Below, piece after piece: positions 18,820 to 63,390 of a stretch of 64,000 nucleotides of DNA. Position 1 is the stretch's first letter, and every line of letters begins with the position of its first letter. Made by a program: the position numbers and the translations under genes. Source of the DNA: Lama glama (lineage: Eukaryota); NCBI GenBank assembly GCA_028534125.1, contig CM052832.1, forward strand, positions 25,358,001 to 25,422,000, in the 5' to 3' direction. The notes under the pieces were generated by a model. That model did not search any database, was not told the DNA's origin, and saw only the letters and a list, made by a program, of their open reading frames with translations.

Positions 18820-19125
18820 AATGTCTGAGCACCAACTATGACTACGTGCTGAGCTCTGAACCCGGCCCTTTGTGTTTTTCATCTAGCCTTCACACTGAAA
18901 CTGCGATGTAGGTTTTCTTACCTCCATTTACTGTCAAAGACACTAAGGCTCAGAAAGGTTAAGAAACTTGCCTGGGGTGGTTCAAACCCACCCAGGGATG
19001 CCAAAAAAAAAAAAAAAAAACCCAAAACAAACAAAAACAAAACTTGCCTGAAGTCACTTGGTTACTAAGGGGTGGAGCCAGGATTTGAACCTAGACTGTT
19101 GGGCTCCAGTGTTTGGGCTCTTTGT
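18820..19125 (-). mobile_element. MIR SINE interrupted by a tRNA-fragment retrocopy
   Basis: cactaaggctcagaaaggttaagaaacttgcctg // aagtcacttggttactaaggggtggagccaggatttgaacc. Confidence 0.85.
18975..19039 (+). pseudogene. Retroposed 3' fragment of tRNA-Asn(GTT) with CCA and A-rich tail
   Basis: ggtggttcaaacccacccagggatgcca (18976-19003) vs mammalian tRNA-Asn 3' end GGTGGTTCGAGCCCACCCAGGGACG+CCA (25/28, two differences are CpG decay); poly(A); TSD aaacttgcctg 18964-18974 / 19040-19050. Confidence 0.85.
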
Positions 19126-19869
19126 GCTGCTGTGCAGATAGTAAGACAACACAGTGGGCCCTGATTCCTTCCTGAAGTCCCAGAAGCCAAGGGCATCTTT
19201 ATCAACACTCAGTTATTTTCTCAGAGCTCAGAGCCAGGAGTGTCATTCCGGGTGGTGTGCAGGAGAGAGAAATTAGAGTCCTTCATTTCACTCAACGAAT
19301 GCCTTCCAAATTGCCTACTGTGATCCACCCCTTTCCACCACATTCAGCTTCAGACCAAGAGCTAACCCTAATAAAGGTAAACATCACCATCATTATTACC
19401 AACTAATAATAATACAAAGTTAGTTCTCACGATGAGCACTCTCTCACGGTACATACTTCTCCCTCCACCCACAGCCACACATTTCTTGCTTAATATTTGT
19501 TCTTCCATCTGCCTTGCAAAGAATTCTCTCCCCTTGTGAGTATTCTTACAGGTCTGTCCTCCTGTTGACCCCGAATTTCAAGGAGGAGGCAGATGCTCAG
19601 CTGCTGCTCAGCCCTCTGGCTATACTTTGAGCCTCCGAGAGACAAGTAGGTACACGATTTTCTGCCGCGATACAAATCGGGAAACATGGAGGAGTAAGTT
19701 GGGTTGTACGCATTATGTAGGGTGGCTCTGTGCGGCTTGGTTGGCCTCCTGTGCTTTGGCTCAAAGTAAATTACACGACCTTATGAGGCGTTTGTTAGCT
19801 CTGTCTCGTGGGAGCTTCATTTAGCCCCTTGATATATAAACGCTAGGTCCGGCCTGCCAGAAGAATGTC

Positions 19870-20587: not shown

Positions 20588-21239
20588 GCCAGTGGCGCAT
20601 ATCAGCAGCTGTATGTAATACCCATTCCTTCCTCCTTCCTTACGAATAAAACCCCAGTGCTGTTCAGTGCCCGGCTAAAAATACTTCCTTTTCAGGACGC
20701 ACTTGGAGTTGGGAGGATGTGTGTCATAGCTCTGGACAATGAAGAAGTTGGCAGAGCAAAGGCTTCTAGAACAGCTTTCATTTCTTGACAAAAAGGAGCT
20801 GACCTGCCCTGTGACCCTCCTGCTTCCTGCCTGGATGGTGGTTGTGCGCCTAAGGGGACAACTGCCATCTTGTGACCATGAAGCCACAAGCTCGAGGACA
20901 GAGACCTATGTGGAAAAAAAGGTAGAAGAGGAAGATTAAAGAACTTGGGTCCCCAAAGTGTTATGATCAGCTGCACCATCCTTGGGCTGCCCAGCTCCAG
21001 ACTTCACGTATGCGACAAGAATACACCCCGTCTATGACACTCAACTAGTGTTTTCCGTCATTTGTCATCAAATACATTCTTTTTTACTTTCTTACATTTT
21101 GAGGGGGAGGTAATTAGGCTTATTTATTTTTAATGGAGGTATGGGGAATTGAACCCAGGACCTTGTGCATGCTAAGCATGCGCTCTACCACTGAGCTATG
21201 GCCTCCCCGCTGTCATCAAATACATTCTGAATTGACACA
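20588..21239 (+). mobile_element. MLT1I/J-like solo LTR with a SINE inserted near its 3' end
   Basis: cccattccttcctccttcctt, gccatcttgtgaccatgaag, cagctccagactt. Confidence 0.75.
21081..21210 (-). mobile_element. Camelid tRNA-derived SINE (Vic-1-like)
   Basis: ggggaggtaattagg...ttgaacccaggaccttgtgcatgctaagcatgcgctctaccactgagcta; perfect 18-bp TSD tgtcatcaaatacattct (21063-21080 / 21211-21228). Confidence 0.95.
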
Positions 21240-42922: not shown

Positions 42923-43048
42923 TTTGGAGGGGTTGAGGAAAAGGTACTTAGGTTTCTTTATTTATTTTAAAGGAAGTACTGGGGATTGAACCCGGGAGCT
43001 CATGCATGCTCAGCACACACTGTACCACTGAGCTATACCCACCCTTCC
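42923..43048 (-). mobile_element. Camelid tRNA-derived SINE (Vic-1-like)
   Basis: gtactggggattgaacccggg...taccactgagctataccc; TSD tta(a/g)ttaactctt (42910-42922 / 43049-43061). Confidence 0.93.
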
Positions 43049-63263: not shown

Positions 63264-63390
63264 GGGTGGGTGGGTATAGCTCAGTGGTAGAGCACATGCT
63301 TAGTATGCACCAGGTCCTGGGTTCAATCCCCAGCACCCTCATAAACAAACAAACCAACCAACCTAATTACCTCCCCCCCCCCCAAAAGTG
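63264..63390 (+). mobile_element. Camelid tRNA-derived SINE (Vic-1-like) inserted in a MER5A remnant (about 63230-63495)
   Basis: gggtatagctcagtggtagagcacatgcttagtatgcaccaggtcctgggttcaatcccc; TSD tattag(c/t)aacac (63251-63262 / 63391-63402). Confidence 0.93.

Follow-up and report, generated by a model that had tools for sequence, protein, structure and literature searches.

In the window, i.e., the whole 64,000-nt stretch of DNA analyzed here, an interspersed repeat, which we take to be a MIR, is interrupted by an insert of 65 nt (positions 18975 to 19039). The initial annotation had described such a split repeat with an insert flanked by 11-nt repeats, and this was confirmed by locating the two exact 11-mers. 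The tRNA-derived part of the insert, referred to as the window copy, covers only tRNA positions 49 to 76 and contains no A-box; it is followed by an A-rich tail (Table 1). By eye, the target-site duplication can be extended in its A-rich part by 3 nt in the 5' direction, giving 14 nt with 2 differences (18961 to 18974 versus 19037 to 19050). The true duplication is probably this 14-nt segment starting at 18961, with the nick at TT/AAGA, since the exact 11-mer begins 3 nt past the TT; the nick site, assigned by eye for the window copy only, thus requires the 14-nt version with its 2 differences. When the insert was removed by script, the flanks aligned with other, paralogous copies of the interspersed repeat in the same genome, and 7 of the 10 matches spanned the junction, one of these 7 with 15 nt or more aligned on either side. 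ARAGORN made no tRNA call on the window fragment, Rfam left it uncalled with sub-threshold chance matches only, and the open reading frame listing contained nothing relevant to the insert. In 20 runs from 5 organisms, between 0.84 and 0.99 of the words making up the surrounding 1 kb were present, a comparison at the level of the region and not of the insert, which says nothing on the age of the insertion. An 11-nt inverted repeat (18979 to 18989 and 19081 to 19091) pairs the T-loop of the insert with a B-box-like motif of the host repeat, because both are of tRNA ancestry and lie in opposite orientations. As a single locus, this insertion is ordinary and dead, and nothing points to a function.

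Table 1. Features of the insert and of the host repeat (positions in the window)
Feature	Positions	Strand	Evidence
Left part of host interspersed repeat (MIR-like)	18900..18974	-	Junction-spanning alignment of the empty site with further copies of the repeat
5' target-site duplication, exact 11 nt	18964..18974	+	Repeat search; TSD score 9.5
Extra G at the 5' junction, absent from the tRNA gene (T48 there)	18975..18975	+	
tRNA-Asn(GTT) positions 49 to 73: T-arm, 3' acceptor strand, discriminator	18976..19000	+	
CCA, post-transcriptional addition in the source tRNA	19001..19003	+	CCA encoded after position 73 in 0/20 Asn gene loci
A-tail: pure A to 19020 (18 A), then A/C-rich	19004..19039	+	
3' target-site duplication	19040..19050	+	Repeat search
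Right part of host interspersed repeat	19051..19130	-	Empty-site alignment

The 2.35-Gb genome from which the window derives was searched with the segment from 18976 to 19000, allowing up to 3 mismatches, which resulted in 25 matches, compared to none with the reversed control. Among the 24 matches other than the window copy, 22 were tRNA-Asn(GTT) genes, a gene fragment at a contig edge, or a full-length pseudogene. An alignment with the 119 tRNA calls that ARAGORN made across the window and the retrieved loci identified Asn as the best match, with 2 mismatches over 25 positions, and the next type had 10 mismatches, the minimum for all other types. With respect to the tRNA-Asn(GTT) genes of the genome, the window copy has 2 or 3 differences over 25 nt, found at positions 57, 59, and 72. 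Positions 57 and 72 are CpG sites, and A57 is also present in one Asn gene (L002), whereas the G59A change may be ordinary drift, position 59 being altered in 4 of the 40 copies described below. Base A58 is retained, as in all 20 full Asn gene loci, 9 of which have the same trailer and probably represent small contigs of redundant sequence; none of the 20 encodes the CCA. The match to tRNA-Asn(GTT) is not due to chance, and the source is the 3' end of a mature, CCA-added tRNA-Asn(GTT), since the presence of CCA indicates that the template was a mature tRNA. Two claims of the initial annotation were thus borne out, namely, a mature tRNA-Asn(GTT) 3' end with a non-encoded CCA and, given the A-tail and the target-site duplication, insertion marks of the L1 type.

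Sibling copies were compiled with queries that comprised positions 59 to 76 followed by A's only and that were blind to both the 5' boundary and base 58. The Asn, Phe, and Cys queries retrieved 13, 35, and 22 matches, compared to 1, 4, and 4 with the reversed controls, which implies at most about 9 chance matches among the 70, a few of which may persist in the final set. Of these, 14 duplicated other matches, 15 had a weak tail or exceeded 2 non-CpG mismatches and were excluded, and 1 was removed by hand as the tail of a SINE. The resulting set contains 40 distinct A-tailed 3'-end copies (12 Asn, 22 Phe, and 6 Cys), i.e., the window copy and 39 siblings; these counts are lower bounds, since decayed or tailless copies escape. 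A junction-adjacent repeat score of at least 6 was obtained for 29 of the 40 copies, compared to 24 of 150 shuffled flank pairs, and 11 copies had no clear duplication by script. CCA followed by A's was found at the 3' end of 33 copies, and the remaining ones ended in C followed by A's, CTG, or ACAG. None of the 40 Asn, Phe, and Cys copies was full length. The yield was uneven by tRNA type, from 22 for Phe, 12 for Asn, and up to 6 for Cys to 1 for Gln and 0 for Lys-TTT: a search for Gln returned 18 matches (control, 17) that included the seed event only, and a search for Lys-TTT returned 4 matches (control, 6) and no tailed copy. Two loci that resemble the insert but have neither tail nor duplication (L005 and L075) were left out of the counts.

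Two additional motif searches did not enter the statistics. The first required G52-A58 and gave 84 matches versus 1 in the control; 29 of the 30 loci viewed corresponded to the local tRNA-Ala-like SINE, presumably Vic-1, and the search was not used for counts. This SINE is called as tRNA by ARAGORN at window positions 21134 to 21206, 42970 to 43043, and 63270 to 63341 and at loci L033 to L062, and many of its genomic copies consist only of a tRNA head, a CCA-like end, and an A-tail, the usual short body being missing. The one remaining locus of the 30 viewed, L048 (near 1501), contains a true 3' fragment of the tRNA-Ala type that starts at about position 52 and has a CCA, a tail, a duplication, and a conserved A58. 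The second motif required T58 and gave 93 matches versus 157 in the control, mostly chance; 20 of the 93 were fetched, and the search served only to find seeds. Tailed T58 copies of further tRNA types are located at L130, L131, L132, and L129; one type is Gln, for which the gene sequence was available, and the others are, we assume, probably Arg-CCT and Ile.

The start positions of the 40 copies were derived from the extension of the match, so that chance overrun is possible. They were 38 (1 copy), 49 (1 copy, the window copy), 50 (1 copy), 51 (2 copies), 52 (1 copy), 53 (4 copies), 54 (8 copies), 55 (5 copies), 56 (5 copies), 57 (5 copies), and 59 (7 copies). Hence, 38 of the 40 copies begin between positions 50 and 59, with peaks at 54 and 55 (13 copies) and at 59. 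The window copy is the longest of the 12 Asn copies; by script, the other 11 begin at positions 50 to 56, but one of them probably starts at 59, because its duplicated target covers the apparent match. The longest copy overall (L174, at about 1480 to 1530) is a 3' tRNA half of Cys that extends from position 38 to the CCA, adjoins G37, which is presumably m1G37, and has C58 and a 15-nt duplication. The initial annotation had raised a defined fragment with its boundary at the T-arm or, if many copies shared this boundary, a minimal retroposon family, an idea that receives no support, since a start at position 49 occurs in 1 of 12 Asn copies and in 1 of 40 copies overall. It had also named scattered boundaries as evidence against such a fragment or family, and these were found in part: the starts vary but concentrate immediately 5' of position 58.

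Base 58 was analyzed in those copies in which the match reaches position 55 or beyond and the duplication ends before position 57, search seeds being excluded; these rules also excluded three G58 candidates (L063, L149, and L154). In the resulting 18 clear read-through copies, base 58 was T in 13 (6 Asn, 6 Phe, and 1 Cys), A in 4, and C in 1, whereas A was present in every gene examined. Three of the Phe copies counted here with T were initially noticed in the search requiring T58, and the blind search recovered them independently. The background elsewhere in the same copies amounted to 22 non-CpG mismatches in 484 positions and to 0 A-to-T changes in 68, a rate that is biased low by the mismatch cap. 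Without a filter on the start position, T58 was present in 21 of 32 Asn and Phe copies, compared to 27% T in the flanks, and 16 of these 21 had CG, CA, or TG, i.e., CG and its decay products, at positions 56 and 57 (flank expectation, 14%; p of about 3e-10), which indicates that T58 is located within the tRNA-derived sequence and not in the flank. A T58 gene as the source of the copies was sought with a T58-bearing query, and no intact Asn gene with T58 was present among its 24 matches, which comprised 19 A58 gene loci, 1 seed, 1 tailless T58 copy (L109), and 3 unrelated sequences. The window copy, with its A58, is an exception and provides no evidence for the T58 scar; it reflects either correct read-through or an unmethylated template. 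One Phe copy (L170, near 1501) has an apparent 2-nt deletion around positions 58 and 59, possibly because the polymerase skipped over the modified base. In mature cytosolic tRNA, the base at position 58 is m1A (PMC4787781). With a laboratory reverse transcriptase, as distinct from the L1 enzyme, m1A causes arrest at +1 and misincorporation, dATP (read as T) being favored when U follows (PMC4787781). Since position 58 carries m1A in the mature tRNA, the T58 excess is likely a fossil of its misreading by a reverse transcriptase, and the simplest reading is that the base was misread independently in each event.

Taken together, we assign a probability of about 0.85 to the reading that the window copy is a single promoterless insertion of the last 28 bases of a mature tRNA-Asn, formed by target-primed reverse transcription, in which LINE-1 used an A-tailed tRNA as template and halted at the T-arm base. 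The A-tail, the duplication, and the A-rich target point to this process, of which they are recognized marks (PMC5322556 and PMC2912911), and the tail and duplication suggest that the L1 machinery, including ORF2p, likely made the insertion. According to this mechanism, ORF2p would nick the TT/AAGA site, prime on the A-tail, and copy the acceptor strand. At m1A58, the enzyme would stop (copies starting at 59), insert dA (T58 copies), or insert the correct base (the window copy), and, once past this position, it would usually drop off within about 10 bases. Each copy would correspond to a separate event from cellular tRNA, with no master element. On a wider scale, a class of A-tailed retrocopies of tRNA 3' ends is quite probably present in mammalian genomes and preserves an error and stop signature of the LINE-1 reverse transcriptase at m1A58 and perhaps at m1G37.

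As to the origin of the 5' ends, we lean toward abortive copying of the whole tRNA. The starts are widely spread (38, 49 to 57, and 59), the Cys copy ends at 38 beside G37, and copies without T58 reach slightly farther 5' (Mann-Whitney p = 0.048, 13 versus 5 copies, a weak difference), all of which favors polymerase stops. A possible, more tentative alternative is that pre-cut 3' tRNA fragments (tRF3a of 18 nt, tRF3b of 22 nt, or longer ones) were A-tailed and copied whole by L1, the ends corresponding to nuclease cuts; the T58 scar would arise identically. The start peaks at 54 and 55 and at 59 fit 3' tRNA fragments of 22 and 18 nt, respectively, TENT2 adds A-tails to fragments of about these two sizes (10.1101/2025.05.12.650695), and the tRNA halves that occur in chimeras with L1 were interpreted as pre-cut (10.1101/2025.02.02.635956). 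However, the starts are widely spread, and the 28 nt of the window copy are a non-canonical size. In addition, Lys-TTT is reported to be enriched among 3' fragments, with tails mostly of 1 to 3 nt (10.1101/2025.05.12.650695), yet no Lys-TTT copy was found, which again argues for polymerase stops.

A self-propagating mini-SINE with a fixed T-arm boundary, or a master copy carrying T58, would account for the T58 shared by 8 of the 12 Asn copies, but this reading is largely refuted and very improbable. The start at position 49 is limited to a single Asn copy, T58 is also present in Phe and Cys copies and, in the motif search requiring T, in Gln-like and other copies, the 3' ends vary, the A-box is absent, the search for a gene with T58 returned none, and the B-box is disrupted by T58. 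The idea that the tailed copies form a SINE family was rejected, since starts from 38 to 59, varied 3' ends, and three tRNA types leave no master with shared ends; a new retroposon family is not what the window copy represents. Retroviral target-site duplications measure 4 to 6 nt, compared to the 11 to 14 nt observed here. It is thus most improbable that the tRNA piece derives from a known SINE, now decayed, or from the primer-binding site of a retrovirus and that the A-run is a later microsatellite: primer sites of ETn/MusD do contain 18 to 22 nt that are complementary to tRNA and mismatched at the m1A position (10.1101/2025.05.12.650695), but the 28-nt copy runs directly into the A-tail and splits an older repeat, no LTR end is evident by eye beside the window copy or the siblings inspected, and local SINE-type sequences differ from it at no fewer than 11 of 25 positions, which agrees with the initial annotation that the insert is unrelated to the local SINE body.

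The window copy has the features of tailed L1 retropseudogenes, namely, a processed template (CCA), an A-rich tail, and a duplication within about 7 to 20 nt. Tailless retropseudogenes, reportedly described by Schmitz in 2004, differ from it in that the window copy is 5'-truncated, 3'-complete, and tailed. In PMC5322556, tailless retropseudogenes are likewise truncated tRNA copies with target duplications that are attributed to L1, but they are 5'-intact, 3'-truncated, and without a tail, so that the copies reported here are their mirror image. The screen described there was limited to sequences of 30 nt or more with an almost complete 5' end and would therefore have excluded the 3'-end class. 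L1-mobilized small-RNA retropseudogenes (PMC2912911 and 10.1101/2025.02.02.635956) share with our copies a small-RNA template, an A-tail, a target-site duplication (9 to 19 nt in the known ones), independence from a promoter, and, probably, in the case of the window copy, an L1-endonuclease-like site; only 3 of 25 young noncoding RNA retrocopies were tailed (PMC2912911). Our copies differ in that they comprise the last 18 to 28 nt only, keep the CCA, have 5' ends clustered at a modified base, and carry a recurrent T58. The extended primer-binding sites of ETn/MusD (10.1101/2025.05.12.650695) also have a mismatch at the m1A58 position, for which the authors invoke misincorporation by reverse transcriptase. 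There, however, a retroviral enzyme produced one inherited mismatch (C on the primer-binding-site strand, which corresponds to G when read as tRNA) within an LTR element, whereas many independent A-tailed insertions with T are observed here. The incomplete tRNAs of the RepeatMasker tRNA class, of which 716 of 50 nt or less are known in human and which are a recognized problem in tRF mapping (PMC5318995), are similar as short pieces outside tRNA genes, and the accessible portion of that article gives no analysis of mechanism, tail, duplication, or position 58. In the literature searched, with most subscription journals outside its scope, we found no description of tailed 3'-end tRNA copies with T58, and the precedent for a mismatch at position 58 was confined to the primer sites of endogenous retroviruses; the supplementary tables of PMC2912911 and PMC5322556 may include copies of this kind. 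Retropseudogenes of tRNA are a known kind, and the T58 signature at the level of a class looks new.

If real, this class would amount to a fossil counterpart of modification sequencing, performed on germline tRNA of the distant past and readable per tRNA type and lineage. It would reveal how the reverse transcriptase of LINE-1 deals with methylation of a base in its template in vivo, and it would record the modification, tailing, and decay intermediates of germline tRNA across evolutionary time. It would also explain the absence of CCA-bearing full-length copies for the three tRNA types examined. Copies with T58 that end in CCA match the misread form of tRF-3 reads and can therefore confound small-RNA mapping.

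Several siblings differed at their 3' ends. Three Asn copies (L074, L072, and L109, near 1501) end not in CCA but in 3 or 4 bases that match the trailers of the genes at L006, L007, and L002, and L074 and L109 carry T58 as well. Their templates may have been partly trimmed precursor tRNAs that were already methylated; alternatively, the CCA may have mutated. Three other Asn copies (L066, L067, and L070, near 1501) have a single C before the A-tail, as if the CCA had been trimmed or incomplete before tailing, or else these copies retain the start of the trailer that is most common among the genes. Lastly, a Phe copy that starts exactly at position 59 (L167, 1501 to 1760) contains a copy of the local SINE inside its A-tail, with the duplication located beyond the SINE, which indicates that this tRNA copy is older than that SINE copy.
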